Assembly (NCBI GenBank): GCA_045598165.1 | Contig: JAZLLN010000088.1 | Location: forward strand, 56,588 to 120,587 | Reading direction: 5' to 3' | Origin: Candidatus Cryptobacteroides sp. | Lineage (GTDB): Bacteria > Bacteroidota > Bacteroidia > Bacteroidales > UBA932 | DNA length: 64,000 nt | In this document: piece after piece, positions 7,261-56,847 of the stretch | Layout of the letters: every line of letters starts with the position of its first letter | Numbering within the stretch: the stretch's first letter is position 1 | Translations under genes and position numbers: made by a program | The notes under the pieces: generated by a model | The model's database searches: none | What the model saw: only the letters and a program-made list of their open reading frames with translations | What the model was told of the DNA's origin: nothing

Positions 7261-7350
7261 CTCTCGTTGTTTTTACAAACTTAACTATTTTTTTGCAAAG
7301 TTTTTTCTGTTTCTTTATTTGAGTCACGCAAAAATAAGCCATCTTGCCGT

Positions 7351-8133: not shown

Positions 8134-8168
8134 AAGACCGGTCTCCATTATAGAATCTGAAATTGTTT

Positions 8169-10256
8169 TTAGAAGAATCTTGCCCTGTTGTCCCTGACGT
8201 CGGCGTCATCCATCATTACAGGGAGAATCATCTGTGAACTGTACTGAGCCTTCTGGCTGTTCATCATCCTGGCATCGTCAGCTGTGTAGAAAGATTCCGT
8301 ATCGCGGCTGTTGACGACAAACACATAAGTTCCGACAGCACCTGCAACCGGTCCTGATATTGTGTTCAGGGGAGCCTTGAACATTGCGCCGAGAGCTGCA
8401 GGATCAATCTGTGCGTTCATCGTTGAGAAGGAGATTTCCTGATCCTTGTTCACAGTGGAATTGAGAGTGGAGGCAACCTCATCGATGGATGCAATCCCGG
8501 CTATCTTGGCTGCGACATCTTCCTTGGCTTTGGCATTGCGGGCCTCGGCGTAAAGCATCTGGCTGATAGGAGCTGACACCTCTGACAAAGGAGCATAACC
8601 CTCTTTGTGAATCTCCTTGAGAGCGGCAATGAAGAAGAAGTTCTGATTGACGGTTATAATCTCCGAAGACTTGTTCTTCTTGGCATCAAATGCCCAGCGT
8701 GTAACTTCCTTGGCATTGTCAACCGCTCCATAGGAAGAAGTGGCCTCAGTGATCTTCATCTGGTGGGAATAGACTCCGAGAGAGTCAACAGCCTTCTTGT
8801 ACCCCTCAAAGGAGCCTGCTGCAATGGATGCGAACTTGTTGGCTTTTGCATAATACTCGTTGAATGTCCCCTCGCTTGCAAGAGCTGTTTTTTCGAGGAT
8901 GGCAACTCTCTTCTTCGCAACGGGAGCCGTCTTCTTTGAAACAAGGACAACGTGGCTTCCGTACCTTGTGTCAATGATATAAGGCTTGCCGACCTCGGCT
9001 GTAAGTACGGATTCGAATCCGGGGATCATATAAGTCTGGGTCATCCAGCCGATATTGCCGATTTCTCCGTCAGCCATCGAGCCCTGGTCTGCGGAATAGA
9101 CTGCCGCTGTCGCGGAGAAGTTCGCACCTTTCTTCACAACGTCCAGAAGGCTGTCTGCGAGATGCTTCGCTTCCTTGCCCTGGAGAAGAATGTGCTTTAC
9201 ATATACGGAATCGGGAATATTTGCAGTTTCCACCACCTTGGCGGCATAGAATGAGTTGCCTGAGCGGATGATGGGAGATACACCCTTTGCCTCTCCGAAC
9301 ACAAAGCTGTTGATGTCGGCATTCACGGTATTGAGTTCGCCTGCCTTGTACCAGTAGTCGGACAACTGGCTCTCGGAGTTCTTGAGAAGGAATGCCTTCA
9401 TATTGTCAGTCGTTCCGAATTCATCGTAAACCGCAGCCATCGCCTCGTTTGTAGCATTGATGTCTCCCTCTGAAGGAGTGACTTCGAACACTACATACTC
9501 TATGTCGCGGCTTGCGTTCTGCTTGTAGAACTTCTTGTGAGCCTTGTAATAAGCCCTGACATCGGCCTCACTGACCTTAATGGTGCTGTCTACGGCAAAA
9601 CTGTAGGGAGCAAGCACAAAGTCAACATTGGCCTTAGTGTTGTTCATTGCAATTTCAGACTCTGCCTGAATGGCGTTCTGATAATAGCTGTTTGTGAAGA
9701 GAGCGCCATACTTGGCGTAGAACTGCTGGGTAAAGACGGTGTTCTGGATATAGTCCCAATAAAGCTTGAGATTTCCGGAAGGGTCATTGCTTATATTCTT
9801 GACAAACTCCACGACATTCTCTCTGGAGAATTGTCCGTTCTGGTCAAGGAACATAGGATTCTGAGCAATGATGGGAGAGATTTCGTCTCCGGTGGTCAGA
9901 GCGATCAGCTCATCATTGCCAACACCGATTCCGGCCGCTTTCGCGTTCTTGATGAAGAGATATCTGTCAATGAGCTCCTGCCAGGCGGCATTGCGGATCT
10001 GCTGGCTGGTCTGCTCGTTCTGCACGGATGAACCGGTGATGATTTCATTGATAGTCTTGTACCTGTCAATGTCCGACAGGAAATCCGAATAGGAAATGGA
10101 CTTTCCGGCAATGATGCCGACGTCATTCTTGGGATTCATGGTCTGAGCGACTGTCTGAAGAGTGCTCGGGTCAATGATGAATGACAAAAGGGCCAGTGCG
10201 ATGATGATTGAAATCGCCAGGCCGAACTTCACGCGTATTTTTTCAAGTACCGCCAT
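8169..10256 (-). CDS. ppiD: PpiD/SurA-N-domain peptidyl-prolyl isomerase (periplasmic chaperone)
   Basis: MAVLEKIR N-terminus with TM anchor; parvulin motifs VKHILL, YSADQGS, GNIGW, TRYGSHVV. Confidence 0.85.
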   Translation of the reverse strand: MAVLEKIRVKFGLAISIIIALALLSFIIDPSTLQTVAQTMNPKNDVGIIAGKSISYSDFLSDIDRYKTINEIITGSSVQNEQTSQQIRNAAWQELIDRYLFIKNAKAAGIGVGNDELIALTTGDEISPIIAQNPMFLDQNGQFSRENVVEFVKNISNDPSGNLKLYWDYIQNTVFTQQFYAKYGALFTNSYYQNAIQAESEIAMNNTKANVDFVLAPYSFAVDSTIKVSEADVRAYYKAHKKFYKQNASRDIEYVVFEVTPSEGDINATNEAMAAVYDEFGTTDNMKAFLLKNSESQLSDYWYKAGELNTVNADINSFVFGEAKGVSPIIRSGNSFYAAKVVETANIPDSVYVKHILLQGKEAKHLADSLLDVVKKGANFSATAAVYSADQGSMADGEIGNIGWMTQTYMIPGFESVLTAEVGKPYIIDTRYGSHVVLVSKKTAPVAKKRVAILEKTALASEGTFNEYYAKANKFASIAAGSFEGYKKAVDSLGVYSHQMKITEATSSYGAVDNAKEVTRWAFDAKKNKSSEIITVNQNFFFIAALKEIHKEGYAPLSEVSAPISQMLYAEARNAKAKEDVAAKIAGIASIDEVASTLNSTVNKDQEISFSTMNAQIDPAALGAMFKAPLNTISGPVAGAVGTYVFVVNSRDTESFYTADDARMMNSQKAQYSSQMILPVMMDDADVRDNRARFF

Positions 10257-43099: not shown

Positions 43100-43193
43100 A
43101 ATTGTTTTTGTATGTTATTTATTATCAATATTCGCAAAATAGCCCACAAATTTACGTAAATTTTTCAAAGAAATGAATAAATTTGCAAGAACG

Positions 43194-44312
43194 ATGAAAA
43201 GAAAGTCGATAATCCTCCTGATATATGTCTTTTGCGGGCTCGTGGCATATGGCCAGAATCCGCAGAAAATGTATTCATATGATTTTGACGGAGCTCTTTC
43301 CGAATACAGGGATTCTCTTGAAGCATGCACTGATTCACTGAAGATGACCGCTTTTCTGAAGGCAATCAAATGCGCCGAAAACGGAATAAGCCTTACGGAA
43401 TATTGTCATCAGCCTGTTGTCGTTGCCCGCAAACGTTTTCATAGGGACGAATTTTTCCTGTATTATCCGCTTCAGGACAAGGCCTGGCATGCCGTTCAGA
43501 ACGATACTGCAGGCGTGGTTTTCGATGTCTCCGGGGCGAAGGATACACTTTGCGTCGACAGGAGGGATTCTCTTCTGCTTTATCCTATGACATGTGGGGA
43601 GGAACGTTTTTTTGCCTCCCGGGACCTGTATGGAATGGGAGGATATGATATTTATGTGGAGCATTGGGACAAGGAGACAGGGACATGGGGAGAACCCCAG
43701 AATATGGGATTCCCGTATTCGTCTCCGTTCAATGATTTTCTTTTTATCAATACCGAAGACGGCAAATACAGTATTTTCGCTTCCGACAGGGATTGTCCTT
43801 CAGACAGTGTGAATGTCTATGTGCTTGAGTATGAGCCGAACCCCATACACGGTGCGGTGAGTGATCCGGTGAAACTCAAGGAGATGGCTATGCTCAACCC
43901 TCCTCCGGCCGAAAAAAGGGAAAAGGTATCCGTGTCTTGCGGGAACGAGCCCGATGAACAGACGCGCATATATAAAGGGAAAGTTGCCGAAGTGCGCTCC
44001 TGCCGCAAGGCAGTTGAGGAGATGTCCTGTAATCTGGACAGGATGAGGGAATCTTATTCGTCCGCTCAGGCTGATGAGAAAGCGAAACTGGAAGAAGCCC
44101 TTATGGAAGGGGAAATGGCGTTGACTTCGCTGAGAGCGACTTTGGACAGGGCTTCCAGAGAACTGCAGAACATTGAGATGGATTTCCTTTTGAACGGGGT
44201 GGAGATAAAATTGGGGGCCGAAGCGGAGGAAGTTGAAACCGGGACCCCTACGCGTGAATTCAAATTTGAGAAGAAGCAGTTCGGGTCACCTCTGTTTGTA
44301 AAATTCCAATAA
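43194..44312 (+). CDS. Hypothetical exported protein with PD40/TolB-like repeats and coiled-coil C-terminus
   Basis: Signal peptide; FASRDLYGMGGYDIY, PQNMGFPYSSPFND, IFASDR. TAAATTTG at 43178-43185 supports ATG 43194. Confidence 0.65.
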   Translation: MKRKSIILLIYVFCGLVAYGQNPQKMYSYDFDGALSEYRDSLEACTDSLKMTAFLKAIKCAENGISLTEYCHQPVVVARKRFHRDEFFLYYPLQDKAWHAVQNDTAGVVFDVSGAKDTLCVDRRDSLLLYPMTCGEERFFASRDLYGMGGYDIYVEHWDKETGTWGEPQNMGFPYSSPFNDFLFINTEDGKYSIFASDRDCPSDSVNVYVLEYEPNPIHGAVSDPVKLKEMAMLNPPPAEKREKVSVSCGNEPDEQTRIYKGKVAEVRSCRKAVEEMSCNLDRMRESYSSAQADEKAKLEEALMEGEMALTSLRATLDRASRELQNIEMDFLLNGVEIKLGAEAEEVETGTPTREFKFEKKQFGSPLFVKFQ

Positions 44313-44317
44313 TATTT

Positions 44318-45046
44318 ATGGACTATTCGGAAATCAAGAACAGCTGCGTATCGTGGATACGTGACTGGTTTGACAGGAACGGGAAAGATTGCTGTGCCGT
44401 GTTGGGAATGAGCGGAGGAAAGGACAGTACCGTTGCCGCCGCATTGTGTGCGGAGGCTCTCGGATGCAGCCGTGTCATAGGAGTGGCGATGCCGGCTGAA
44501 GGGCAGAGCCTGAATGATGCCGACGAGATATGCCGCTGGATAGGAATCCGCTATCTCTGCATCCCGATAGGAGATATCATCAATTCTTTTTCATCTCTCA
44601 CCTCTGAACTTGTTCTGTCAAAGCAGGCGGAGCAGAATGTTCCGCCGAGGGTCAGGATGACGGTTCTGTATGCAGTGTCCCAATCTCTGAACGGCAGGGT
44701 GGTGAATACCTGCAACCTGTCGGAAGACTGGGTGGGCTATGCTACCCGCTGGGGTGACAGTGTGGGGGATTTCAGTCCTCTCGGTTCTCTGGTGGTTCAG
44801 GAAATACGTGGTATCGGGCACGCCCTCGGCATTCCTTCAAAATGGGTTGACAAAACTCCCGATGACGGCCTTCCCCACAGTTGCTCGGATGAGCAGAAGT
44901 TCGGTTTCACATACGAAGTTCTGGACCGGTACATAAGGACCGGGGAGTGTGATGATAAGGAAGTGAAGGAGAAGATAGACGGTATGCATCGCCGCAATTG
45001 GTTCAAGATGTCCATGCCCGAAAGTTTCAACCCGTGGGAAAAGTAG
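44318..45046 (+). CDS. nadE: NH3-dependent NAD+ synthetase
   Basis: VLGMSGGKDS, NVPPRVRM, NLSE, GYATRWGD, KTPDDGL, DEQKFGFTY; no glutaminase domain. Confidence 0.93.
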   Translation: MDYSEIKNSCVSWIRDWFDRNGKDCCAVLGMSGGKDSTVAAALCAEALGCSRVIGVAMPAEGQSLNDADEICRWIGIRYLCIPIGDIINSFSSLTSELVLSKQAEQNVPPRVRMTVLYAVSQSLNGRVVNTCNLSEDWVGYATRWGDSVGDFSPLGSLVVQEIRGIGHALGIPSKWVDKTPDDGLPHSCSDEQKFGFTYEVLDRYIRTGECDDKEVKEKIDGMHRRNWFKMSMPESFNPWEK

Positions 45047-46239
45047 CGATTATCGGCGCCGGGGCGTCAGGGTGTTTTTGTGCAGTCAACATAAAGTCTG
45101 TGAGACCTGATGCGGAGGTCTCCGTGTTTGAGGCTGCTCCCGGTCCGATGGCAAAGTTGTCCCTTACCGGTGGCGGCCGTTGCAATCTTACGAATACATT
45201 TTCCAGTATTGACAATCTCCGTGAAGTATATCCGCGGGGATTCAATCTGACGAAGAGAACTTTTTCTTCTTTCGGTCCTGAGGAATGTCGCGCCTGGTTC
45301 GAAAAGGAAGGCGTGCGTCTTTATGCTCAGGCTGATGGAAGGGTTTTTCCGAGTTCCGATGATGCAATGGAGATTGTCGGCCTGCTGGCGGACAGAATGC
45401 GGAGAACCGGAGTTGAACTTCATTGCCGGCACAGGGTTATCGGCCTCAGAAAAGAAGAAAAGTTTATTCTTGACTTCGACGGCAGGCCTTCGTTCGAGGC
45501 GGATGTCGTTGTGGTGGCAAGCGGAGGAGGAACTGCCGGATTGCTCGGAAATCTGGGTTTGAAAACGGTTCCGCAGGTTCCTTCCCTGTTTTCGTTCAGG
45601 ATAGATGATGCTCCCTTGACCTCACTTATGGGTACTGTGGTCCCCAAAACGATTCTCGGTCTTGCAGGAACGAATTTCAGAGCGGAAGGAGAAATGCTTG
45701 TTACCGATTGGGGTGTGAGCGGCCCTGCAGTGTTGAGGTTGAGTTCTTATGCCGCCCGCAGGCTGGCGGAAATGAACTATATGGCGGATTTGACGGTGAA
45801 CTGGTTTGGAAGCGGTGAAGAAGAGGTTCGGAAATGGTTGCAGGGAGTAGCCGGGGAAAACGGACATAAGCAGGTCAGCAGCATCCATCCTGAAGGAATC
45901 AGCAACCGTACATGGAGGCATATCCTTTCCAGGGCCGGAATCCGTGAGGATTTGCGCTGGTCTGAACTGGGCACGAAGGGTGCCAACAGATGTGTTGCAT
46001 CAATCACTTCGGATACATATTCCATAACGGGGAGATGCAGATTCAAGGATGAATTCGTGACTTGCGGAGGAGTCAATCTTTCGGAAGTCAGTGCAAACAC
46101 GATGGAATCCAGAAAGATATCGGGGCTTTTCCTCACCGGCGAGGTGCTTGATGTGGATGCGGTGACAGGAGGTTTCAATCTGCAGGCTGCGTGGAGTACG
46201 GCTTATGTTGCAGGAGTGACAATTACGGAAAGAATTTAG
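45034..46239 (+). CDS. HI0933/BaiN-family flavoprotein
   Basis: IIGAGASG, KLSLTGGGRCNLTN, GRVFP, GEMLVTDWGVSGPAVL, GEVLDVDAVTGGFNLQAAW. GTG start inferred. Confidence 0.9.
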   Translation: MGKVAIIGAGASGCFCAVNIKSVRPDAEVSVFEAAPGPMAKLSLTGGGRCNLTNTFSSIDNLREVYPRGFNLTKRTFSSFGPEECRAWFEKEGVRLYAQADGRVFPSSDDAMEIVGLLADRMRRTGVELHCRHRVIGLRKEEKFILDFDGRPSFEADVVVVASGGGTAGLLGNLGLKTVPQVPSLFSFRIDDAPLTSLMGTVVPKTILGLAGTNFRAEGEMLVTDWGVSGPAVLRLSSYAARRLAEMNYMADLTVNWFGSGEEEVRKWLQGVAGENGHKQVSSIHPEGISNRTWRHILSRAGIREDLRWSELGTKGANRCVASITSDTYSITGRCRFKDEFVTCGGVNLSEVSANTMESRKISGLFLTGEVLDVDAVTGGFNLQAAWSTAYVAGVTITERI

Positions 46240-46247
46240 TATATTTG
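46240..46247 (+). promoter_or_regulatory. -7 promoter element (TATATTTG), probable promoter of the 46254-55384 gene run
   Basis: TAnnTTTG match 6 nt upstream of ATG 46254; downstream gaps are all 11 nt or less through 55384. Confidence 0.6.
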
Positions 46248-46253
46248 TAAGTT

Positions 46254-47048
46254 ATGATAATTCTCATCACGGGAATAACGTCAGGATTCGGCAAGGCGAT
46301 GGCTGAAAGACTGAGTGCCGACGGGCACAAGGTGTTCGGAACATTCCGCAAGGAATGTGACAGGATACCGGGGGTGACGTACCTCAAAGCTGATGTGCAG
46401 AATGAGGAAAACTGCAAAGCTGCTGTTGACAGCGTGGTCGCCGCTGAAGGTAGGATAGATGTTTTCATCAACAATGCAGGGATGGGGATAGGCGGTCCGC
46501 TGGAGTTCTGTTCCCTTGAGGATGCTCAGCTCCAGATGGATACCAACTTTATGGGAATGGTGCGTTTCCTGCATTTTGTTCTTCCGGTAATGAGAAATCA
46601 GGGTTCAGGAAAGATATTGTGTTTCAGCTCGATAGGCGGCCTTATGGGTCTGCCGTTCCAAGGCTTGTACAGTGCCAGCAAGTTTGCCATTGAAGGGTAT
46701 TGCGAGGCTTTGAGAATGGAAGTGAAGAGTTTCGGGATAGATGTTGTGGTGATAGAACCCGGAGACTTTGCCACAAAGTTCACGGCACAACGCAAATCTG
46801 TGACGGACGGAGAGGCTTATAGAATTTACAGAACCTACGCCGAGTCTCTGGCCAGCATAGAGAATGATGAACAGACGGGTCTGAAACCTGAATATCTTGC
46901 CGGGAAAATCAGCAGGATAGTGATGAAAAAGCATCCTGCCTGTTCTTATGTAATATCAACTTTCGAACAGTATCTTTCCACTGTTCTCAAGAGAGTTCTG
47001 CCTGCAAGATGGTTCTCGGCCATTCTCAGCAGTTATTATAAACTTTAA
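46254..47048 (+). CDS. Short-chain dehydrogenase/reductase
   Basis: TGITSGFG, NNAG, SSIGG, YSASK. Confidence 0.9.
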   Translation: MIILITGITSGFGKAMAERLSADGHKVFGTFRKECDRIPGVTYLKADVQNEENCKAAVDSVVAAEGRIDVFINNAGMGIGGPLEFCSLEDAQLQMDTNFMGMVRFLHFVLPVMRNQGSGKILCFSSIGGLMGLPFQGLYSASKFAIEGYCEALRMEVKSFGIDVVVIEPGDFATKFTAQRKSVTDGEAYRIYRTYAESLASIENDEQTGLKPEYLAGKISRIVMKKHPACSYVISTFEQYLSTVLKRVLPARWFSAILSSYYKL

Positions 47049-47059
47049 ATCACACGATT

Positions 47060-47881
47060 ATGCGAAAACTTCTTTTGCTGCCTCTGGCCATAATGATGGC
47101 CGCCTGTTCGTCTCAGGAACTTCAGGTTATGTCTTTCAACATCCGCCACGGTCTTGCCAACGACGGGGAGAATTCCTGGTCAAATCGTTGCCCCGCCACG
47201 ATTGCGATGCTGCAGGACCGGAAGCCGGATATTTTCGGTCTTCAGGAGGCGCGTGATTTTCAGATAGATTACATTTCAGAGAATCTTCCCGAGTACAGCA
47301 ATGTGGGAGTCGGCCGAGATGACGGAATCCGCGAAGGAGAGACAATGGCGATATTCTGGAACACATCCAAGATTGATCTTCTGGATTGGGGTACCTATTG
47401 GCTCTCGGAGACTCCTGAAGTGCCGTCAAAAGGATGGGATGCCGCCTGCATCCGTACCGCTACATGGTCGAAACTTAAAATGAAGGATAGTGGCAGGGAA
47501 TTCTTTTATGTCAACACGCATCTTGACCACATCGGGCCCATGGCACAGAAAAACGGTCTTGCCCTCATCGTCGAAAGGATTGCGACAATGAATCCCGACG
47601 GCATTCCTATGATTCTCACCGGAGACTTCAACGTGACGGCTGACAACCCCTGTCTGGAAGATCTCGACAACATGATGAAGAGCGCCCGTGTGGAGGCTCC
47701 GCATACCGACAACAGCATCACCTACAATGCCTGGGGCAATGAGGAGAATTCCTGCGTGATTGACTATATCTACTATTCAGGATTCGAGTCCTGTGACAAT
47801 TTCAAGGTAGTCAACCAGTCCTATGCCGGCATACCTTATGTCTCGGACCATTATCCCGTAACGACTACGCTGAAATTCTAG
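47060..47881 (+). CDS. EEP-family lipoprotein (phosphoesterase)
   Basis: Lipobox MAAC; MSFNIR, GLQE, VNTHLDH, GDFN, IDYI, SDHYP. Confidence 0.88.
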   Translation: MRKLLLLPLAIMMAACSSQELQVMSFNIRHGLANDGENSWSNRCPATIAMLQDRKPDIFGLQEARDFQIDYISENLPEYSNVGVGRDDGIREGETMAIFWNTSKIDLLDWGTYWLSETPEVPSKGWDAACIRTATWSKLKMKDSGREFFYVNTHLDHIGPMAQKNGLALIVERIATMNPDGIPMILTGDFNVTADNPCLEDLDNMMKSARVEAPHTDNSITYNAWGNEENSCVIDYIYYSGFESCDNFKVVNQSYAGIPYVSDHYPVTTTLKF

Positions 47882-47885
47882 GCTG

Positions 47886-49331
47886 ATGAAAAGACTGTTT
47901 GCAATTCTCACGTCACTTGCATTGCTTGTGGCAGTGGATGCCGGGGCGAAGATAACGTTCCCCTCGGTCATAAGCGACAATATGGTCCTTCAGCAGCAGA
48001 CCGAAGTTGCATTGTGGGGAAAGGCTGTGCCGGGCAAGACCGTGACAGTCAAGGCCGGTTGGGCAAAATCTCCCATAAGGACTGTCGCAGATTCTGAAAC
48101 CGGGAAATGGTCGGTGCGCATCTCAACGCCTGCTGCGGGTGGTCCGTATGAGATTACAGTCAGTGACGGAGAGGCTGTGACGCTGAAGAATGTCCTTGTC
48201 GGTGAGGTTTGGTTCTGCTCGGGCCAGTCCAATATGGAAATGCCTGTGAAGGGATATAATTCCCAACCGGCGAAGGGCGCGACTGAATTCATAGTGGGAG
48301 CGAAGGCTTCCCGCCCCATCAGAATCTGCAACATCAAGAAGAAATCTTCCAGGACTGTTGAAGAAGTCTCCGAAGGCAGCTGGGAAGAGCATGTCCCTTC
48401 CGTTGTGGCAAAGACCAGCGCCACGGCTTATTTCTTTGCCGAAGCTCTTCAGTCCGCCATTGATGTGCCTGTAGGCATCATTGTTTCCAGTTGGGGAGGC
48501 AGCAGCATCGAGACCTGGATCCCCCGTGAAGTGATAGCGAAGGATTTCCCCGAGTTCGACCTCAAGTTCCTGGATGACCCTTCCATAGAGGTTCACAACT
48601 ATCAGGCTCCCAGCCTTCTGTTCAACGGTCAGGTAGCTCCTCTTGTCCCTTATACCTTCAAGGGAATGATATGGTATCAGGGTGAGACCAACCGTTTCCG
48701 TCCCGCACAGTACATCCGTCTTCAGACAGCGTATGTTCAGGCAATGAGGGATATTTTCCAAGTTCCCGACGCTCCTTTCTACTTTGCTCAGATTGCTCCG
48801 TTCAAATACGGTGACGGCACCAATTGCGAACTGGGATATTTCAACGAAGCCCAGCAGAAGACTTTGGACTGCATTCCTCACAGCGGCATGGCGGTTCTCT
48901 GCGACATAGGTGAATTCGGTACGATACATCCCTGTGAGAAGCGGAAAGTCGGTCAGAGACTGGCTTATCTGGCCATGAGGCACGACTATGGCTTTGATTT
49001 CCTCGAGGCTGACGCTCCCCTCTATACGGGAGTGGAATTCAAGGAAGGCAAGGCTTACGTGAGTTTCAGCACGGGAACGGGACTTTCTCCGATGGGATGT
49101 GAACTCGGTGGATTCGAAATGGCCGGTGCCGACAAGGTTTATCACAAGGCGGTGGGAGAACTTTCAGGAAAGGACAACAGGGTAATCGTGGTAAGCTGCG
49201 CTGAAGTCCCGGAACCTGTTGCAGTCCGTTACTGTTTCCGTGACTGGAGTGAAGGTTCGGTATATAACAATTATGGAATTCCGGTTGCCCCGTTCCGTTC
49301 CGACGACTGGGCGAGGGAGGATGTTGAATGA
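47886..49331 (+). CDS. Sialate O-acetylesterase (SASA/SGNH) family protein
   Basis: Signal peptide; DNMVLQQ, GEVWFCSGQSNM, WGGSSIETW, WYQGE, IHP. Confidence 0.88.
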   Translation: MKRLFAILTSLALLVAVDAGAKITFPSVISDNMVLQQQTEVALWGKAVPGKTVTVKAGWAKSPIRTVADSETGKWSVRISTPAAGGPYEITVSDGEAVTLKNVLVGEVWFCSGQSNMEMPVKGYNSQPAKGATEFIVGAKASRPIRICNIKKKSSRTVEEVSEGSWEEHVPSVVAKTSATAYFFAEALQSAIDVPVGIIVSSWGGSSIETWIPREVIAKDFPEFDLKFLDDPSIEVHNYQAPSLLFNGQVAPLVPYTFKGMIWYQGETNRFRPAQYIRLQTAYVQAMRDIFQVPDAPFYFAQIAPFKYGDGTNCELGYFNEAQQKTLDCIPHSGMAVLCDIGEFGTIHPCEKRKVGQRLAYLAMRHDYGFDFLEADAPLYTGVEFKEGKAYVSFSTGTGLSPMGCELGGFEMAGADKVYHKAVGELSGKDNRVIVVSCAEVPEPVAVRYCFRDWSEGSVYNNYGIPVAPFRSDDWAREDVE

Positions 49332-50440
49332 TTATGGCAGACAGCCTGGAAAAATACGGTCTGGATCTCCACTGTACGATGATTCTCGAGGAATACCGCG
49401 GGAATCTTGATGTGTTTGAGAAAATCAGGAGCATAGCATGCGACATCCTGAAGAAGAACATATCCGACAACGGAATATACCTGAATGCCATCGAGTCCAG
49501 GGTGAAGACTGAGAAAAGCCTTGCCGGCAAACTGGAACTCAAGGGGTCGAAGTATTCCTCCCTTGATGACATCACCGATATCGTGGGTCTGAGGGTCATA
49601 ACGTTCTACAGTGATGAGGTTGACAAGATTTCCGCCATGGTGGACAGGCTGTTTGAAATAGACTGGACGAACAGCGTGGACAAGCGCAAGATGCACGAAC
49701 TCGACAGTTTCGGCTACAATTCGTTGCACTACGTCTGCAGGATTCCAAAAACGCTGTATAATGATCCCGAGCATCCTGAGATCAACACGTACAGACTGGA
49801 AATTCAGATGCGGACGGCTCTCCAGCACGTCTGGGCTACAATGTACCACGATACCGGTTATAAATCCGGAGTTGAGGTCCCAAAAGAATATCTCCGCAAT
49901 CTCAACAGGCTTGCCGGTATGATGGAACTGGCTGACGAGCAGTTCAGTCTGATAAGGACCAATATCAACAACTACAGACGCGGGGTGCAGAAGCTGGTGT
50001 CAAGCGGCCGTTTCGATGACGTGCCTCTTAACGGAGACTCTTTCAAAAGTTATCTTGAACTCAGGCCTTTCGACAAATTGGTCAAGAAGATAGCGGCTAT
50101 CAACCAGGCCGAAATCCACGAATCATCCATACTTCCCTACCTTCAGGTATTCAAACATTTCAACTTTGAGACGCTCGGCGATGTTGACAGGTTCATCAAG
50201 GAGAATAGTGATGATGCCTATAATCTCGCTGTATATCAGATAGGAAACACTGATTTGGACATTATCTCTTCCACGGTTGCCGTCCAGGACCTTTGTGTCG
50301 TCTGTATCCTGAAGAAAAAAGGTGGAGTCGGAGGTCTCAAGCGGATGTTCGACATTCTTGGCGGACGTTCCGATTACAACGAGGCAAGGGCGGAGAGAAT
50401 TGTGGAGACAGCCAGGCAGTTACCTTTTATGAATGAATAG
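49328..50440 (+). CDS. Small alarmone synthetase (RelA/SpoT synthetase-only protein) with C-terminal extension
   Basis: RVKTEKSLAGKL, DIVGLRVI, GYNSLHY, EIQMRT, QHVWATMYHDTGYK; no HD, TGS or ACT domain. Start may be ATG 49334. Confidence 0.88.
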   Translation: MIMADSLEKYGLDLHCTMILEEYRGNLDVFEKIRSIACDILKKNISDNGIYLNAIESRVKTEKSLAGKLELKGSKYSSLDDITDIVGLRVITFYSDEVDKISAMVDRLFEIDWTNSVDKRKMHELDSFGYNSLHYVCRIPKTLYNDPEHPEINTYRLEIQMRTALQHVWATMYHDTGYKSGVEVPKEYLRNLNRLAGMMELADEQFSLIRTNINNYRRGVQKLVSSGRFDDVPLNGDSFKSYLELRPFDKLVKKIAAINQAEIHESSILPYLQVFKHFNFETLGDVDRFIKENSDDAYNLAVYQIGNTDLDIISSTVAVQDLCVVCILKKKGGVGGLKRMFDILGGRSDYNEARAERIVETARQLPFMNE

Positions 50441-50442
50441 TT

Positions 50443-51024
50443 ATGGCAAACAGATATTTGGATACGACATTTGTAGACAAGGCGATAAAGTTCGCAGTGG
50501 ACGCCCATGCCAATACGGAACGCAGGGGAAAAGGTTTCCCTTATGTCATTCACGTTCTGGAGGCAATGGAAATCGTGGCATCAATGAGCAATGACCCCGA
50601 ACTGCTGGCTGCGGCCGCATTGCATGATACTGTGGAGGACACAGGAGTAACGGTGGAAGAAATCAAGTCCGGGTTCGGTGAAAAGGTTGCGAATCTTGTG
50701 AAAGCCGAGTCCGATGTGATTGACAGCAGTGTCAGTGAAACGGAAAGTTGGAGGTCACGCAAGCAGGCTGCAATTGACAGGCTCTCTTCGGCAAGTCTGG
50801 AAGCGAAGATGGTTGCCTTGGGTGACAAACTGTCCAATATGAGGGCTATTGCCAGGGATTATAAGAAATCAGGGGACAAACTGTGGGAGATTTTTCACGC
50901 TCCGGGTGGAAAGTCCGATCATGAATGGCACTACCGCGGACTTACCGAAGCTCTTTCGGACCTTGAGGGAACGGACGCTTATGCGGAGTTTATATCATTG
51001 ATAGATGGAGTTTTCAAAAGATAA
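50443..51024 (+). CDS. Small alarmone hydrolase (stand-alone HD domain, Mesh1/SpoT-HD-like)
   Basis: AH...RRGKGFPYVIHVLE, AAALHDTVEDT, FGEKVANLV, GDKLSNMR. Confidence 0.88.
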   Translation: MANRYLDTTFVDKAIKFAVDAHANTERRGKGFPYVIHVLEAMEIVASMSNDPELLAAAALHDTVEDTGVTVEEIKSGFGEKVANLVKAESDVIDSSVSETESWRSRKQAAIDRLSSASLEAKMVALGDKLSNMRAIARDYKKSGDKLWEIFHAPGGKSDHEWHYRGLTEALSDLEGTDAYAEFISLIDGVFKR

Positions 51025-51033
51025 TTTAACGGT

Positions 51034-51426
51034 ATGATTCGAAAATTCAGTCCGGTAGAAGGAAGAAATGCGGAAATCATCGAAGCGGTGATGAGCTGTC
51101 CGGAAGTTGTGGATCTTCCCGACGAAATGAAATTCAAAATCCGCCTTTGTGTGGAGGAGGTCGAGGAAAACATTCTCGATTATTCGGGTACAACCTGGGT
51201 GGAGGTCAGCGTGGATGCCGCCACGGACCAGTTGAAGGTGATGTTCAAGGATGGGGGCATAGAATTTGACCCTCTTGATTCTCCCGAGCCGGATATCACC
51301 TCTCCCGTTGAAGAAAGAAAGATAGGTGGGCTTGGAATCTTTCTGTGCAAGCAGATGATGGATTCCCTGGACTATCACTACGAAAACGGCAGCAATATTT
51401 TCACGATGGTAAAAAAAATCAAATAA
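51034..51426 (+). CDS. RsbW/SpoIIAB-like anti-sigma-factor Ser/Thr kinase (HATPase_c)
   Basis: N-box EEVEENILDY, D-box DGGIEFDP, G-box ERKIGGLGIFL, then DSLDY...N. Confidence 0.88.
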   Translation: MIRKFSPVEGRNAEIIEAVMSCPEVVDLPDEMKFKIRLCVEEVEENILDYSGTTWVEVSVDAATDQLKVMFKDGGIEFDPLDSPEPDITSPVEERKIGGLGIFLCKQMMDSLDYHYENGSNIFTMVKKIK

Positions 51427-51429
51427 ATT

Positions 51430-51732
51430 ATGAACGTAGAAATTACAAGGGAAAGCGCAAAAACTTTCGTCAAACTTTCAGGCAGGCTTGATACCACGAA
51501 CGCTGATCAGTTCCAGAAAGACATTACCCCTTTGATGGAGGATCCGAAGCCTGATTTTGAAATAGACTGTACGGATATGGAGTACACTTCAAGTCAGGGA
51601 TTGAGACTTTTCCTGATGCTTCAGAAAGCTGTATCTTCCAAAGGAGGCGCAATGGTCATGACAAATATGAAGCCTCAGGTCAAGGAAGTCTTCGATATCA
51701 CGGGATTCTCAAATATCATCAGAATCATATAG
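51430..51732 (+). CDS. STAS-domain anti-anti-sigma factor (RsbV/SpoIIAA-like)
   Basis: LSGRLDT, IDCTDMEYTSSQGLR (phospho-acceptor Ser context), EVFDITGF. Confidence 0.9.
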   Translation: MNVEITRESAKTFVKLSGRLDTTNADQFQKDITPLMEDPKPDFEIDCTDMEYTSSQGLRLFLMLQKAVSSKGGAMVMTNMKPQVKEVFDITGFSNIIRII

Positions 51733-52536
51733 ATGGATTTTGCTTCCCAAAGCATAGGACTGAGCACTGTCTTCAATGCCCGGGATTTGGGTGGTTATGT
51801 CCTTCCGGGAGGCCGTTCTGTAAAGAAAGGCCTGCTGTTGAGGGGCGGTGATCTTGCAAGGATTTCGGATGAAGAGGTCGCTGTACTGAAGGAAAGGTAC
51901 AATCTTTCGAAGGTGTTTGATTTCCGTACAAGTATGGAAGTCAAGAATCTGCCGGACAGGGAGATTCCCGGCGCAAGCAATATCTGGATGCCGGCATTCA
52001 ATGAAGGAAGCCAGAAAATGGAGGAGATGGTTCTTCCCAGGGAGGCGTACGTGGATCTTGGCGGGTGGCTGGTGAAACATGCAGGGAATGTCAAGGTGCA
52101 GTCGGTAGCCAGGGAAATGTACGCCGGGCTCGTCACGGACGATTTTACTCAGATGCAGTATGCGGGTTTCCTGCAGAACATAGTCAACACGCCCTCGGGG
52201 GCTGTGTATTGGCACTGTTCACAGGGAAAGGACAGAACCGGTATCGCCGCAGCCCTGGTCCTTACGGCGCTCGGAGCCGACAGGGACCTTGTAATGGCAG
52301 ATTACGGGATTTCCAATGAATTCTATAAGGAAGACGTTGACCGTTATTGCTCGCTTCTGGGTACCGCGGAGGAACGGGAGGTTATCCGGACTTTCATCGG
52401 TGTGAATCCTCGTTATTTCGGCCAGGCTCTTGACTTGCTCGAAGCGCAGTATGGTTCACTTATGGAATTTCTCACCGGCCCGTTGTGCCTGTCACGGGAA
52501 GACATTTTGATTTTACGCGAAAGATATACCGAATGA
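51733..52536 (+). CDS. Cys-based tyrosine/dual-specificity phosphatase (PtpB/IphP-like)
   Basis: FNARDLGG, LLRGG, FDFRT, HCSQGKDRTG (CX5R P-loop), DY.ISN. Confidence 0.88.
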   Translation: MDFASQSIGLSTVFNARDLGGYVLPGGRSVKKGLLLRGGDLARISDEEVAVLKERYNLSKVFDFRTSMEVKNLPDREIPGASNIWMPAFNEGSQKMEEMVLPREAYVDLGGWLVKHAGNVKVQSVAREMYAGLVTDDFTQMQYAGFLQNIVNTPSGAVYWHCSQGKDRTGIAAALVLTALGADRDLVMADYGISNEFYKEDVDRYCSLLGTAEEREVIRTFIGVNPRYFGQALDLLEAQYGSLMEFLTGPLCLSREDILILRERYTE

Positions 52537-53477
52537 AACGGACACTGACTTCAATATTGTTGTTTCTGTGCGCATTAAGCCTGAATGCACAGAAACTTAC
52601 GTTCGTTCCGCAATGGACGGCACAGACTCAGTTCGCGGGCTATTACATGGCACTGGAAAAGGGATATTACGCAGAGGAGGGACTGGATGTGTTCATCAAT
52701 CATCTCAAGGCCAATTCTTCCGAGACTTCCATGGATATGCTGCTGAACGGTAAGGCCGAGATTGTAGGCCAGCAGCTGATTCAGTCTGTCATTGCCCGTG
52801 CTGACGGAGTGAAACTGGTCAATGTTTTCCAACTGACTCAGGAAAGCGGGCTCTGTTGTGTATCCAGGACACCTATCAGTGAACCCAAGGATATGGATTC
52901 ACTGCGTGTAGGGCGGTGGAAGGTGGGATATGCGGATTTTTGCGACATGCTTGAAGCGTATACGGGCATCAGGGTCAACTGGGTTCCTTTTCTGAACGGA
53001 ATCAATCTTTTCATTTACGGTGCCGTGGACGCTACGCTGTGCTATTCTTACAGTGAACTTATCTCTCTCGATCTTGCAATCGGCAATATTCCGGAAGATC
53101 ACGTCATCCGATTCTCGAATTTCGGATATGAGTGTCCCGAAGACGGACTCTATGTCACGGAGGAATATTACAGGAAGAACAAAGAAACCGTCGACAAATT
53201 CGTAAAAGCTTCAAAACGCGGATGGGATTATGTCAGAGGACATAGGGAAGAGGCGTTGGAGGTCACATACAAATTCATTGAGGCGAACAGAATAAGCACT
53301 AACAGGGAACATCAGAAGAGGATGCTTGACGAGTATCTGAGTCTTCAGATCAACGGGCATACGGGATGCACGGACTATGCACCTGTGAGGGAACCGGTGT
53401 TCCGTGATATTGTCGGGGCACTGTTGAATACCGGTTATATTACAAGCAATGTTGAATACAGCGATCTGATCAAATGA
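52533..53477 (+). CDS. NMT1/THI5-like periplasmic substrate-binding protein (orphan)
   Basis: Signal peptide MKRTLTSILLFLCALSLNA; PQWTAQTQFAGYYMALEKGYYAEEGLDV; FVKASKRGWDY. Confidence 0.82.
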   Translation: MKRTLTSILLFLCALSLNAQKLTFVPQWTAQTQFAGYYMALEKGYYAEEGLDVFINHLKANSSETSMDMLLNGKAEIVGQQLIQSVIARADGVKLVNVFQLTQESGLCCVSRTPISEPKDMDSLRVGRWKVGYADFCDMLEAYTGIRVNWVPFLNGINLFIYGAVDATLCYSYSELISLDLAIGNIPEDHVIRFSNFGYECPEDGLYVTEEYYRKNKETVDKFVKASKRGWDYVRGHREEALEVTYKFIEANRISTNREHQKRMLDEYLSLQINGHTGCTDYAPVREPVFRDIVGALLNTGYITSNVEYSDLIK

Positions 53478-55384
53478 AAATCAAGGAATCTTTTTCTGCC
53501 AAGCTCAGTCTGGGCATTCTTGCGGTCACATCCGTGATATTCATCATAACCATAGGCATCTCCGCATTTTTCTCGCAGAAGATATTGGTCGAAGAGGCTA
53601 CCAAGTCTGCCGAGAGCCTCAGGGATGCGACTGTAGCCAATATAGAGAAAATTCTCAAGGACGTTGAAATATCAGTGATTGCATCATCCTGGCTTGTCAA
53701 AGAGAATATCAGCAATGAGGAGTATCTTTATCATATCACACATAAACTTGTGGAGGAGAATCCGAACATTGTGGGAAGTGCAATCGCTTTCGAAAAAAAC
53801 TATTTCCCCGGGAAATACTATTTCAGTCCTTACTCCTATCTCGATGCCGGGACAGGTGAAGTGATATCAAAACAGTTGGGAAACCAGCAGTATGATTATT
53901 TCTATATGGACTGGTATCAGATCCCGTCCCTTCTTGAGGGCCCCTGTTGGGGCGAGCCCTATTATGATGAGGGAGGGGGAGAGTATATGATGGCTACGTA
54001 CAGCTATCCTCTCAAGGATGATGAAGGGAAAGTGTTTGCCGTTATGACGGCTGATATTTCTCTTTTCTGGATTTCCGAGATGCTTGCCGGTATAAAGCCA
54101 TATCCCAATTCAAACGTGATGCTCATCAGCCGTAACGGCTCTTATATCTCACAGGGGTCGAAAACGGATCTGACGGGAGAAACGATATTCTCCACCTTGT
54201 ATTACACTGAAGACGGCGACGGCAGACTTGAAAAGGTAGCCCAGGCATTGAGTGAGGGGAAAAAGGGATCCATGCAATACAGACAGGGTACGGAAATTTC
54301 ATTTGCGGTTTTTGCCCCTCTCGACAACGGATGGAAAGCATGTATCACCTGTGGTTATCGGGAAATCCTTTCACGATTGGATCAGATGAGGTTGATTGTG
54401 TTCATTCTCAGCATCTTCGGAATCCTGGTACTCTTCATTGTGTCGTACGTTGCAATAAGGAGGATAATACAGCCTTTGCTTGAGTTCTCCAAATCGGTGA
54501 TGAACATAGCGAAGGGAGATTTCAACACCACTCTTCCGGAAATCCAGAGTGAAGATGAAATCAAGAAGCTCAGGGATTCCTTCGAGTATATGCAGACCTC
54601 TCTCAAGGAATACATAAGCGAACTGAAGACCACCACCGCGGCAAACCAGAAATTTGAAAGCGAACTCAGCATTGCCAACGCCATTCAGATGGCTATGCTT
54701 TCAAAGAACTTCCCGCATACGGACAGGGTCGACGCCTTTGCGCTGGTACAGCCCGCCAGGGAAGTCGGAGGGGACCTGTACGATTTCTTCATAGAAAAGG
54801 ACAGGTATCTTTATTTTGCCGTCGGTGACGTGTCCGGAAAGGGTGTTCCGGCATCTCTCGTAATGGCAATCACAAGGGCGGCATTCCGTTTCATTGCCAA
54901 AATGGGATTGTCTATGGAGGAAGTCGTGGGTAAGATGAACGACACTCTTTCCGAGGGTAACGATACGGGAATGTTCGTGACATTCTTTGCCGGAAAGATA
55001 GATTTGCAGACCGGAGAATTCGAATATTGCAACGCGGGCCACAATCCCATTGTGGTCATATCTCCGGACGGCAAGGCGGAATATCTCAAGCCGAAGTCGA
55101 ATCTTGCGCTGGGCCTTTTCCCCCAGTTCCCCTATGTCCTTGAGAAGGGCCGTGTGGAGAAGGGTTCAAGCCTGGTGCTCTATACGGACGGAGTCACGGA
55201 AGCTGAGCGCGTGGACAAGGAACAGTTCGGTGAAGAACAACTTATCGGCTGGGCCGGTAAATACCGTGGCAGTTATGCAAATGCTGACGAATCCTGCCAT
55301 CAGCTTCTGAATGAGGTCAAGGCATTCACTGCCGGCAATGAGCCGAATGATGATATAACGATAATGACAATAGACCTTAAATAG
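53474..55384 (+). CDS. Membrane sensor phosphatase: TM-dCache-TM-HAMP-SpoIIE(PP2C), RsbU-like
   Basis: Two TM helices flanking a Cache-like region (DWYQ..WGEPYYD..TADI); HAMP (QPL...IAKGDF...DEIKKL); PP2C motifs EVGGDLYD, GDVSGKG, MFVT, NAGH, LYTDGVTEA, DDIT. Confidence 0.9.
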   Translation: MKIKESFSAKLSLGILAVTSVIFIITIGISAFFSQKILVEEATKSAESLRDATVANIEKILKDVEISVIASSWLVKENISNEEYLYHITHKLVEENPNIVGSAIAFEKNYFPGKYYFSPYSYLDAGTGEVISKQLGNQQYDYFYMDWYQIPSLLEGPCWGEPYYDEGGGEYMMATYSYPLKDDEGKVFAVMTADISLFWISEMLAGIKPYPNSNVMLISRNGSYISQGSKTDLTGETIFSTLYYTEDGDGRLEKVAQALSEGKKGSMQYRQGTEISFAVFAPLDNGWKACITCGYREILSRLDQMRLIVFILSIFGILVLFIVSYVAIRRIIQPLLEFSKSVMNIAKGDFNTTLPEIQSEDEIKKLRDSFEYMQTSLKEYISELKTTTAANQKFESELSIANAIQMAMLSKNFPHTDRVDAFALVQPAREVGGDLYDFFIEKDRYLYFAVGDVSGKGVPASLVMAITRAAFRFIAKMGLSMEEVVGKMNDTLSEGNDTGMFVTFFAGKIDLQTGEFEYCNAGHNPIVVISPDGKAEYLKPKSNLALGLFPQFPYVLEKGRVEKGSSLVLYTDGVTEAERVDKEQFGEEQLIGWAGKYRGSYANADESCHQLLNEVKAFTAGNEPNDDITIMTIDLK

Positions 55385-56125
55385 TTATTCTCCCGCATAA
55401 GCGAGTGTGGCGACGGAGATTCTTACTCTGCCGCCATATTTTTTGAAAATGGCGTTGCAGCAGGCCGCTGAAGTTGCTCCGGAGGTGAAAACGTCGTCAA
55501 CAATCAGGATGTGCTTCGGCTCATCCTTTCCGGAGGGTCTGTTGAAATAAAAGGAATTCCTTACGTTTTTCTCACGGGCGGATTCATCCAGAACTGTTTG
55601 CGTGCGGGTATTTCTTGTTCTCGAAAGGGAAGAGCAGTCCAGGGTCGCACCCGGGAAATTGTCGGCTATGATTCTTGCTATGATTTCTGCCTGATTGTAT
55701 CCCCTTGTCCATTTTCTCCGCCAGTGAAGGGGAACCGGGACGATGAGGTCAACGTCATTGAAATATCCGGAGCTTACAAGCCTGCGTGCCAGCATTCCGG
55801 CGAAATGTCGGCCTTCGCAGAAGTCTCTTCTGTATTTCAGCCCTTTGGGTATTTCCTTGTAGTCCGACGTATAGAATACGAGCGCCACGGCATACAGATA
55901 CATGCCGGCAGGAGCTTCCACCCGACCATTGAGTGTGTCGGCCATAGGATTATGCGCATATTCCCAGAAATGGGTGAGAGGCAGGTCAGCCAGACAGCGG
56001 AGGCATATCGTATCTTCCGCAAGAATCAGATTCCTTCCGCATACGGCGCATTTCCTCGGCAGTGCCAGATCCGCCAGACCGCGGAGCAGGAGCTCCAGCG
56101 TCAGCACGACATTGCTCCGCAGCAA
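55385..56125 (-). CDS. ComF-family phosphoribosyltransferase-like protein
   Basis: Zn finger CAVCG...CLRC, LKY, VPVPLH, RGYNQA, IVDDVFTSGAT. Start uncertain (TTG). Confidence 0.88.
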   Translation of the reverse strand: MLRSNVVLTLELLLRGLADLALPRKCAVCGRNLILAEDTICLRCLADLPLTHFWEYAHNPMADTLNGRVEAPAGMYLYAVALVFYTSDYKEIPKGLKYRRDFCEGRHFAGMLARRLVSSGYFNDVDLIVPVPLHWRRKWTRGYNQAEIIARIIADNFPGATLDCSSLSRTRNTRTQTVLDESAREKNVRNSFYFNRPSGKDEPKHILIVDDVFTSGATSAACCNAIFKKYGGRVRISVATLAYAGE

Positions 56126-56847
56126 TTGATGACCTGGCCGCTTACATATGAAGCCAGATCACTGGCGAGGAAGAGTGCGACTTTGGCTACGTCTTCGACA
56201 GTGCCGCCACGGCGGAGGGGGATGGTTTTTATCCAGGCTTCGCGGACGTCATCAGGCATTGCCGCAGTCATATCCGAAATGATGAAGCCCGGGGCGATGC
56301 AGTTGGCGCGGATTCCTCTGGGTCCCATTTCCTTGGCGATGGATTTGGTAAGGCCTATCAACCCGGCCTTGGATGCGGAGTAGTTGCATTGTCCGGCATT
56401 TCCGTGTTCGCCGACGACAGAACTCATACTGATGATGCTGCCTCTGCGTTGCCTTGCCATAACCGGAGTGACGGCGTGGATGAAATTGAATGCGGATTTG
56501 AGATTGACGTTGATGACAGCGTCCCACTGGGGTTCTTCCATCCTGAGCATCAGTCCGTCCTTGGTGATTCCGGCGTTGTTGACAAGGATGTCAATCTTTC
56601 CGAAGTCGGAGAGAATCTGTTCCACTACGGAATGGCTTTCGTCAAAGGATGCCGCATTGGAAGCATAGGCCCTGACTTTGTGACCGAATGCGTTTAGTTC
56701 TTCAACGGTCTGCTGGGCCGTTTCGTTAATAACCAGGTCTGTGAAGGCGACATCAGCGCCTTCTTCCGCGAATTTCAGGGCGATAGCCTTGCCTATTCCT
56801 CTGGCCGCTCCGGTGATGAGCGCCACTTTTCCATCCAATAATCCCAT
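56101..56847 (-). CDS. fabG: 3-oxoacyl-[ACP] reductase
   Basis: ITGAARGIG, NNAGITKDGLMLRM, SSVVG..GNAGQCNYSASKAG, NCIAPGFI. Confidence 0.92.
   Translation of the reverse strand: MGLLDGKVALITGAARGIGKAIALKFAEEGADVAFTDLVINETAQQTVEELNAFGHKVRAYASNAASFDESHSVVEQILSDFGKIDILVNNAGITKDGLMLRMEEPQWDAVINVNLKSAFNFIHAVTPVMARQRRGSIISMSSVVGEHGNAGQCNYSASKAGLIGLTKSIAKEMGPRGIRANCIAPGFIISDMTAAMPDDVREAWIKTIPLRRGGTVEDVAKVALFLASDLASYVSGQVINCCGAMSC

Follow-up and report, generated by a model that had tools for sequence, protein, structure and literature searches.

An NMT1/THI5-family binding protein encoded with a dCache sensor phosphatase in Candidatus Cryptobacteroides: a candidate two-protein sensing unit

Introduction

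That solute-binding proteins can stimulate membrane receptors is already well established for several families of such proteins. The closest described cases are LuxP-LuxQ of Vibrio, HptA-HptS of S. aureus and NspS-MbaA of V. cholerae, in which binding proteins that have no transporter signal via dCache-like receptors (PMC8050422). Here we describe a locus of comparable layout in a 64,000-nucleotide stretch of Candidatus Cryptobacteroides sp. (contig JAZLLN010000088.1, positions 56,588 to 120,587 of the forward strand; hereafter the window), where the gene for an exported NMT1/THI5-family solute-binding protein stands directly before the gene for a membrane-bound sensor phosphatase of the PP2C type. 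What the window shares with the three known systems is a binding-protein gene beside a receptor gene, no transporter, and the double-PDC (dCache) fold of the periplasmic domain; in HptS it is the membrane-proximal module that contacts the binding protein. It differs from them in that their binding proteins belong to Peripla_BP_4, SBP_bac_11 or SBP_bac_8 and not to NMT1, and in that their outputs are histidine kinases or GGDEF/EAL enzymes. Neither LuxQ nor HptS is among the top structural matches listed for the window's dCache domain.

The GlnH-GlnX-PknG system of Mycobacterium and Corynebacterium likewise leads from a transporter-less binding protein through a membrane protein to Ser/Thr phospho-signalling, but its binding protein is of the SBP_bac_3 family, its membrane protein is a four-helix bundle that lacks any enzyme domain, and it ends in a kinase where the window has a PP2C phosphatase. 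As to the phosphatase, Chlamydia trachomatis RsbU and Pseudomonas aeruginosa SiaA are similar transmembrane PP2C proteins that act on a STAS-type switch and are opposed by an RsbW-type kinase. The periplasmic sensor domain of chlamydial RsbU binds metabolites, and it differs from the window sensor in that tricarboxylic acid cycle acids are bound directly. We know of no dedicated binding protein for either RsbU or SiaA. A 2021 review counts 13 receptor-interacting binding-protein families, with neither NMT1 nor PF09084 in its text. As receptor types it lists chemoreceptors, histidine kinases and GGDEF/EAL enzymes, together with a single Ser/Thr kinase system, and phosphatases do not figure in its abstract as receptors that binding proteins stimulate (PMC8050422). 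Full-text literature searches returned no description of a Cache-PP2C sensor that has an NMT1-type binding protein as its partner, and it is this pairing that is the new part of what follows.

From comparisons of sequences and structure models, we lean towards the view that the binding protein and the periplasmic dCache domain of the phosphatase act as one two-protein sensing unit, with the binding protein as its dedicated co-sensor. The wider proposition we regard as evenly balanced, namely that an NMT1-type binding protein with a dCache domain is an undescribed two-protein periplasmic receptor module of about ten phyla, the first binding-protein-dependent receptor with a PP2C (partner-switching) output, and a new family of binding proteins in signalling.

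Conserved pairing of the two genes

The two genes and the domains that matter here are the following:

52533-53477, + strand: exported NMT1/THI5-family solute-binding protein, 314 residues, the proposed co-sensor (Pfam NMT1, 5e-30)
52533-52589, + strand: Sec signal peptide, residues 1-19, predicted cleavage between LNA and QK (sequence)
53474-53477, + strand: ATGA overlap of the binding-protein stop (TGA) and the PP2C start (ATG), translational coupling (sequence read)
53474-55384, + strand: membrane sensor phosphatase, 636 residues, with a first transmembrane span (TM1), dCache, a second span (TM2), HAMP and PP2C (Pfam, hydropathy, motifs)
53579-54376, + strand: periplasmic dCache domain (residues 36-301), on which the binding protein is proposed to dock (model with a mean predicted local distance difference test score, pLDDT, of 91)
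54452-54610, + strand: HAMP linker, residues 327-379 (Pfam HAMP, 8.6e-11)
54800-55378, + strand: PP2C (SpoIIE-family) phosphatase domain, residues 443-635 (Pfam SpoIIE, 1.1e-50)

An earlier note on this DNA had pointed to the overlap between the secreted binding protein and the PP2C start, and a fresh reading of the sequence confirms it. To see how general the arrangement is, homologues were taken from 400 evenly drawn genomes of the same order, from 400 genomes of the phylum, and from a pattern scan in which each prokaryotic species was represented by one genome, and profiles made from the proteins of the window were used to score the flanking DNA. A homologous dCache sensor gene lies immediately downstream, on the same strand, of all 47 binding-protein genes in the order sample (Bacteroidales), of 14 out of 15 in the phylum sample, and of 77 out of 80 in the species scan, which reaches about ten phyla. 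Altogether, 138 of 142 binding-protein genes directly precede a dCache sensor; of the four exceptions, three lie at contig ends, which leaves locus L113 as the only genuine one. By their record titles, the carriers include Bacteroidota, Desulfobacterota/Thermodesulfobacteriota, Acidobacteriota, Planctomycetota, Ignavibacteria-type lineages and Omnitrophota, and further Kiritimatiellia, Victivallales, Thioalkalivibrio and Coprothermobacterota. Some carriers can be cultured, examples being Phocaeicola barnesiae DSM 18169 (L085) and Xylanibacter ruminicola D31d (L102). The median gap between the two genes in homologous loci, as calculated from longest open reading frame (ORF) starts, is -14 to +8 nt. 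The gene is thus kept beside a receptor gene in 138 of 142 loci, and the window's protein comes with no transporter of its own, two features by which binding-protein-dependent receptors are recognized.

What the sensor is attached to is far less constant. The partners of the binding protein comprise dCache-HAMP-PP2C proteins, a PP2C-RsbW fusion, a GAF-histidine kinase followed by a REC-PP2C protein, a TPR-histidine kinase, an adenylate/guanylate cyclase, and a dCache domain without any output; moreover, the STAS and RsbW genes shift in position and strand around the pair. Hence, given the mobility of STAS and RsbW and the variety of outputs, the invariant unit is the binding protein plus the dCache domain.

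NMT1 domains are also found built into sensors, though only distant ones: there are NMT1-PAS-histidine kinases in Bacteroidota, a methyl-accepting chemotaxis protein (MCP) signalling domain ahead of a C-terminal NMT1, and a kinase of 2077 residues that carries two NMT1 and two SBP_bac_3 domains (examples are L024, L027, L030 and L038, and P0206, P0221 and P0220). No close fusion of the window-type binding protein to a sensor turned up when longer proteins were searched for.

The transporter question

The binding protein has 337 metagenomic homologues at 50-99% identity and, wherever these are named at all, the public name is "ABC transporter substrate-binding protein". For the window, this name finds no counterpart: no ATP-binding cassette (ABC) ATPase or permease is detectable across its 64 kb, in keeping with the earlier note, which had seen none adjacent. 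The protein is the sole NMT1 homologue in the whole genome (2.4 Mb, 97.5% complete), and no free or cognate permease for it was found there, the only BPD_transp_1 permeases being those of a PotABCD-like set with its own SBP_bac_8 protein and of a GlnPQ-like importer with fused SBP_bac_3 domains. The cognate BPD_transp_1 permease and ABC ATPase that make up an importer of the ThiXYZ, SsuABC or TauABC type are thus missing. For the homologous loci, detection of an ABC ATPase served as the transporter proxy, the permease queries being insensitive to the SsuC type (none was detected in control locus L197). Of 138 pairs, 8 have an ABC ATPase no more than 1 kb away, 18 have one within 3 kb, and the other 120 have none within 3 kb; in L197, which holds a remote NMT1 homologue, the adjacent ABC ATPase was detected. 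With the pairing so regular and ABC neighbours so few, the outcome that the earlier note had set against its own proposal, homologues mostly beside ABC permeases, does not obtain, and its coupling of the protein to a dCache sensor instead of a transporter is borne out.

The protein might nevertheless be an ordinary transport protein whose ABC importer is encoded at another site, such as the GlnPQ-like one on contig 57, and which stands near the sensor through co-regulation or because uptake and sensing share it. The five loci L082, L083, L100, L105 and L121 speak for this and against a purely sensory role, since a polar-amino-acid-type permease and a GlnQ-like ATPase are flush with the binding-protein gene and the permease has only a truncated periplasmic stub of ~130 residues; transport use in some lineages is therefore possible. 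A related importer with 3-5 fused SBP_bac_3 binding domains also neighbours the module in L040, L042, L067, L068, L127 and L135, and BctC, ChvE and GltB are known cases of a binding protein that serves a transporter and a sensor alike (PMC8050422). On the other side are the 120 of 138 pairs without an ABC ATPase within 3 kb, the absence of a free permease in the window or the genome, where both importers carry their own binding domains, and the success of ABC neighbour detection on L197. Moreover, NMT1-family proteins usually pair with permeases of the SsuC/TauC/ThiX type, not with the polar-amino-acid type. On balance, we think the transport explanation quite improbable. Where a lineage has an importer beside the module, uptake might be a further task of the binding protein, or the importer might be under the control of the switch, but neither applies to the window. 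A pairing conserved in about ten phyla without a transporter suggests instead that the binding protein and the sensor probably form a two-part sensor for the outside.

Co-divergence and sensor residues linked to the binding protein

The two proteins have also diverged together. Over 101 pairs, evolutionary distances of the binding protein correlate with those of the dCache domain at r = 0.84-0.91, as against 0.63-0.68 when the binding protein is compared with the PP2C domain and 0.58-0.68 when dCache is compared with PP2C, these last two being parts of one polypeptide. With the catalytic domain taken into account, the partial correlation between binding protein and dCache is 0.74, a value reached by 0 of 500 permutations, and after thinning to 61 divergent rows the three correlations are 0.86 (binding protein with dCache), 0.61 (binding protein with PP2C) and 0.56 (dCache with PP2C). 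Such co-divergence could come from co-evolution of proteins in contact or from the two moving together as a single module, and on both readings the binding protein is tied to the dCache domain.

Particular residues of the sensor follow the binding protein as well. Q149 and I150, which sit just after the pocket pair W147-Y148, are conserved at 95% and 91% in sensors with a binding protein versus 0% and 13% where it is absent. The former sensors also bear a membrane-proximal signature (positions 208-257) that comprises Y214, H227, N235, T237, F239, S240, R253, G256 and R257; the sensors that carry it come from both halves of the sensor tree, that is, from lineages that are not monophyletic. In the dCache model, these positions map to the proximal module and to the helix that lies over the distal pocket. 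K208 is likewise conserved only in sensors that have a binding protein, and L120 and L124 are examples of loci that carry the signature in full.

The sensor domain and its relatives without a binding protein

The sensor matches MCP-like_PDC_1, dCache_1, HAMP and SpoIIE/PP2C in Pfam, dCache_1 at 43.7 bits being just below the cut-off of 45. Its two hydrophobic spans, at residues 15-33 and 308-326, bracket the dCache domain of ~270 residues and so place it outside the cell. The PP2C domain has the motifs DVSGKG (452) and NDDIT (625), and NCBIfam gives a partial SiaA match that spans the HAMP region and the start of PP2C; with a SpoIIE domain, the metal-binding Asp motifs, and genes for a STAS protein and an RsbW-type kinase in the operon, the protein has the full make-up of a partner-switching PP2C phosphatase. 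The structures closest to the dCache model (pLDDT 91) are 9heh, 3lic, 3lib, TlpQ (histamine), McpX and PctD, and MkcA is also among the best sequence and structure matches.

Several of these are receptors of the dCache_1AM class, named for an amine motif (AM) that in PctD consists of R103, D133, W155, F188, Y189, M215, S217 and D235 (PMC10589655). Through the 3lib alignment, PctD F188/Y189/M215/S217/D235 correspond to W147/Y148/M173/T175/D194 of the window sensor, R103, D133 and W155 of the motif being unmapped. The class offers likenesses to the window in that PctD, McpX, M. mazei 3lib and the Desulfovibrio inopinatus phosphatase R3 are among the closest matches of the sensor domain, in the five pocket positions, and in the occurrence of PP2C outputs (PMC10589655). 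It differs in that its domains bind amines directly, with no binding-protein partner reported, and in having Ser217 in PctD where the window has T175. The isolated dCache domain of the D. inopinatus Ser/Thr phosphatase, WP_027185430.1, binds ethanolamine at 2.3 µM (PMC10589655). The sensor pocket, as read from the aligned residues, appears to resemble those of amine-binding dCache domains, and an intact pocket of this type, together with the ethanolamine-binding phosphatase domain, makes the window's dCache domain probably a ligand sensor in its own right. This argues against the binding protein as the primary receptor.

The distribution of the two genes argues in the same direction, and here the points that weigh against a joint sensing unit are best taken together. 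In the order sample (Bacteroidales), which is unbiased, 30 of the 77 homologous sensors stand without a binding-protein gene beside them, and many of these genomes have none anywhere. The window's nearest sensor relatives, in L159 and L160 (46% identity; gene order RsbW-PP2C-STAS-synthetase-hydrolase), are among those that lack it. On the sensor-domain tree, presence and absence call for 8 changes, against a mean of 23.8 after shuffling, and well-supported branches make at least 5 of the 8 unavoidable. The distal pocket residues W147, Y148, M173, T175 and D194 are kept to the same degree in sensors that have a binding protein and in those that do not. The co-divergence, for its part, could stem from rate variation shared by periplasmic proteins or from joint shuffling of the module. 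Lastly, the window sensor has N214, Q227, G235, E253, A256 and Q257 at six of the signature positions, as do those of L079 and L086, so that the signature is only partly retained. L079, from a metagenome-assembled genome of Bacteroidaceae, has the binding-protein gene inserted between RsbW and PP2C.

The earlier note had gone further than coupling and had made the binding protein the primary receptor that presents a ligand to the dCache domain. This part of its receptor mechanism is not supported, unlike the coupling to the sensor (138 of 142 loci): 30 of 77 sensors do without the binding protein, the window's closest relatives included, and the amine-type pocket is equally conserved with and without it, one such dCache domain binding ethanolamine by itself (PMC10589655). 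Given sensors without a binding protein and a conserved amine-like pocket in the sensor itself, the binding protein is more likely a co-sensor than the primary receptor.

The same distribution raises the thought that in this lineage the module is a relic, the sensor having reverted to sensing alone and the binding-protein gene being kept without a signalling role. The window sensor does group with L159 and L160, it has lost the six membrane-proximal signature residues just named, and three genomes of the same genus (G406, G663 and G764) have neither the binding protein nor the dCache sensor, which makes the module accessory within the genus. But the binding-protein gene is intact and translationally coupled, the protein keeps 19 of 19 nearly invariant family residues (including W28, Q31, Q33, F34, Q100, D166 and E175), its metagenomic homologues are many, and the sensor retains Q149, I150, K208, T237, F239 and S240. 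We give a relic a probability slighter still than that of a transport protein, and continue to prefer a co-sensor.

Two further observations concern sensors without a binding protein. The same-family genome G547 has a sensor of the histidine-kinase type. In the window's own genome, contig 122 (~7199-8361, minus strand; L007) holds a second dCache fragment (E 5e-13) and a PP2C sequence in separate short frames, which may be the remains of a split or decaying second sensor phosphatase.

The binding protein and its ligand

With 105.4 bits against NMT1 (PF09084; Pfam cut-off 20.5), the binding protein belongs to the NMT1/THI5-like fold family. Its AlphaFold model (pLDDT 95.5), a type II periplasmic-binding-protein fold, has as top Foldseek matches ThiY (3ix1, with N-formyl-4-amino-5-aminomethyl-2-methylpyrimidine, FAMP), the thiamin-binding protein 4nmy, and Thi5, at template-modelling (TM) scores of 0.72-0.77, the highest for ThiY, and 17-20% identity; TauA, SsuA and PqqT rank after these. 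The N-terminus, MKRTLTSILLFLCALSLNA followed by QK, is a Sec signal peptide of the type cleaved between A and Q, a pattern seen in most of the 40 family N-termini listed. A lipoprotein reading was rejected: LFLC is not a lipobox, and a lipobox-like Cys occurs in 9 of 99 family members.

Although ThiY (of ThiXYZ), 4nmy and Thi5 are the best fold matches and of the same Pfam family, they differ from the window's protein in more than their low identity. There is no permease or ATPase of the ThiX/ThiZ type here and no thiamine pyrophosphate (TPP) riboswitch, a search for this or any other riboswitch giving no Rfam match in 48000-56500. In the alignment, Lys62 and His66 of Thi5, which we take to be its active-site residues, fall on Gln80 and Gln84. 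Identity as the 4-amino-5-hydroxymethyl-2-methylpyrimidine phosphate (HMP-P) synthase THI5 was rejected for this replacement, and the protein also has an export signal. A thiamine-pyrimidine ligand, an idea that rests on the fold likeness to ThiY, Thi5 and the thiamin-binding protein, is unsupported. The invariant residues that the protein shares with its family are aromatic, amide and acidic, with no invariant Arg or Lys among them, and we infer that such a set would suit a heterocycle or amine, neutral or cationic, more than a sulfonate or nitrate.

Could the binding protein influence the sensor without touching it, as a periplasmic buffer, scavenger or enzyme that sets the free level of a compound sensed by the dCache domain? 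The intact pocket, the homologous sensors that work without a binding protein and the isolated amine-class phosphatase dCache that binds ethanolamine (PMC10589655) are all compatible with this, and some NMT1-fold proteins, such as Thi5, are enzymes. An enzymatic role is made less attractive by the Gln residues at the Thi5 positions, and the co-divergence specific to dCache and the sensor residues linked to the binding protein are easier to account for by contact, although a shared ligand could yield some of either. We consider action without contact unlikely, and a docked co-sensor the better account.

The outer edge of the sensor-linked NMT1 clade is marked by L026, L028 and L029, which hold stand-alone NMT1 homologues of ~30% identity between genes that are MIP-channel-like and adenylate-kinase-like, both names being judged from N-terminal sequence only; no sensor or ABC gene was detected in the flanks of ~1.5 kb examined.

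Proposed mechanism and operon context

The pair closes a run of seven tightly packed + strand genes at 49328-55384 (ORF list, Pfam), of which the first five, with the overlap into the sixth, are:

49328-50440, + strand: RelA/SpoT-type synthetase (Pfam)
50443-51024, + strand: HD_4 hydrolase (Pfam)
51034-51426, + strand: RsbW-like serine kinase (Pfam HATPase_c_2, 4.7e-17)
51430-51732, + strand: STAS protein, the presumed PP2C substrate (Pfam STAS, 1e-17)
51733-52536, + strand: Y_phosphatase3 protein, without signal peptide or hydrophobic span (Pfam, 1.9e-53)
52533-52536, + strand: ATGA overlap of the Y_phosphatase3 stop (TGA) and the binding-protein start (ATG) (sequence read)

In the mechanism that we propose, the binding protein would be exported by its Sec signal peptide, a step read from the sequence, and would hold a small molecule in the cleft between its lobes, as the invariant W28, Q31, Q33, F34, Q100, D166 and E175 suggest. 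It would then dock on the dCache domain, for which gene order, co-divergence and the sensor residues conserved only in the company of a binding protein all argue. The intact distal pocket of the dCache domain would probably take a small amine-like ligand of its own, and the binding protein would consequently be a second input or a gain control and not the sole receptor; indeed, the module may be a coincidence detector, with the binding protein and the pocket each binding a different small molecule. The combined signal would run through TM2 and HAMP to the PP2C domain, which would dephosphorylate the STAS protein in opposition to the RsbW-like kinase and so switch a downstream partner, probably the alarmone synthetase/hydrolase pair of the same operon. 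What the sequences show is the gene structure, the export signal, the topology, the lack of a transporter, the conserved pairing and the co-divergence; physical docking, the identity of either ligand and the direction in which the switch would be regulated are inferred parts of the scheme.

The RelA/SpoT-type synthetase and HD_4 hydrolase (49328-51024), the probable output, recur elsewhere: such a pair adjoins the module in L087, L096, L098, L108 and L109, and a small alarmone synthetase (SAS) alone does so in L090 and L111. The pair also adjoins sensors that have no binding protein, in L159, L160 and L185.

Against their public name of ABC transporter substrate-binding protein, the comparative evidence marks the homologues as dedicated partners of one dCache sensor family. 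If this were confirmed, PP2C partner-switching systems and the NMT1 family, both absent from the account of the 2021 review, would be brought within the range of receptor stimulation by binding proteins. A tractable soluble handle for ligand discovery would become available for a receptor family that is widespread in gut and rumen Bacteroidales, sulfate reducers and others; and in this genome, a chemical cue from outside would be tied to alarmone metabolism.

Neighbouring genes

The Y_phosphatase3 gene, whose product is cytoplasmic, is wedged here between the STAS gene and the binding-protein gene. In L185 (1-735), a locus without a binding protein, it adjoins the HD_4 hydrolase, and it seems to travel with the alarmone genes and not with the sensor. 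Upstream, the + strand genes are nearly contiguous over 43173-55384, and the stop of a SASA esterase overlaps the start of the synthetase (49328-49331); the transcription unit may therefore exceed seven genes.

Two kinds of transporter genes recur near the module elsewhere. A GlnPQ-like polar-amino-acid importer is found beside the binding protein/PP2C/STAS module in several phyla, and the copy in the window's own genome is the one on contig 57 (L008:3262-5993). Its ATPase has ~360 residues, with an unassigned tail of ~120 that in this genome's copy gave no BLASTP match to the RsbW-like kinase (E 0.99); the switch may regulate uptake by this importer. The other is a trio that follows many modules and consists of an ABC_sub_bind protein, a protein of ~410 residues with an N-terminal STAS domain, and an ABC ATPase of 271 residues. 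It is found at L113:7840-11943, where alone the ABC_sub_bind protein (366 residues) was seen and typed, and downstream of the module in L043, L044, L047, L055-L057, L060, L063, L064, L119, L123 and L124, and may be another transporter wired to STAS signalling.

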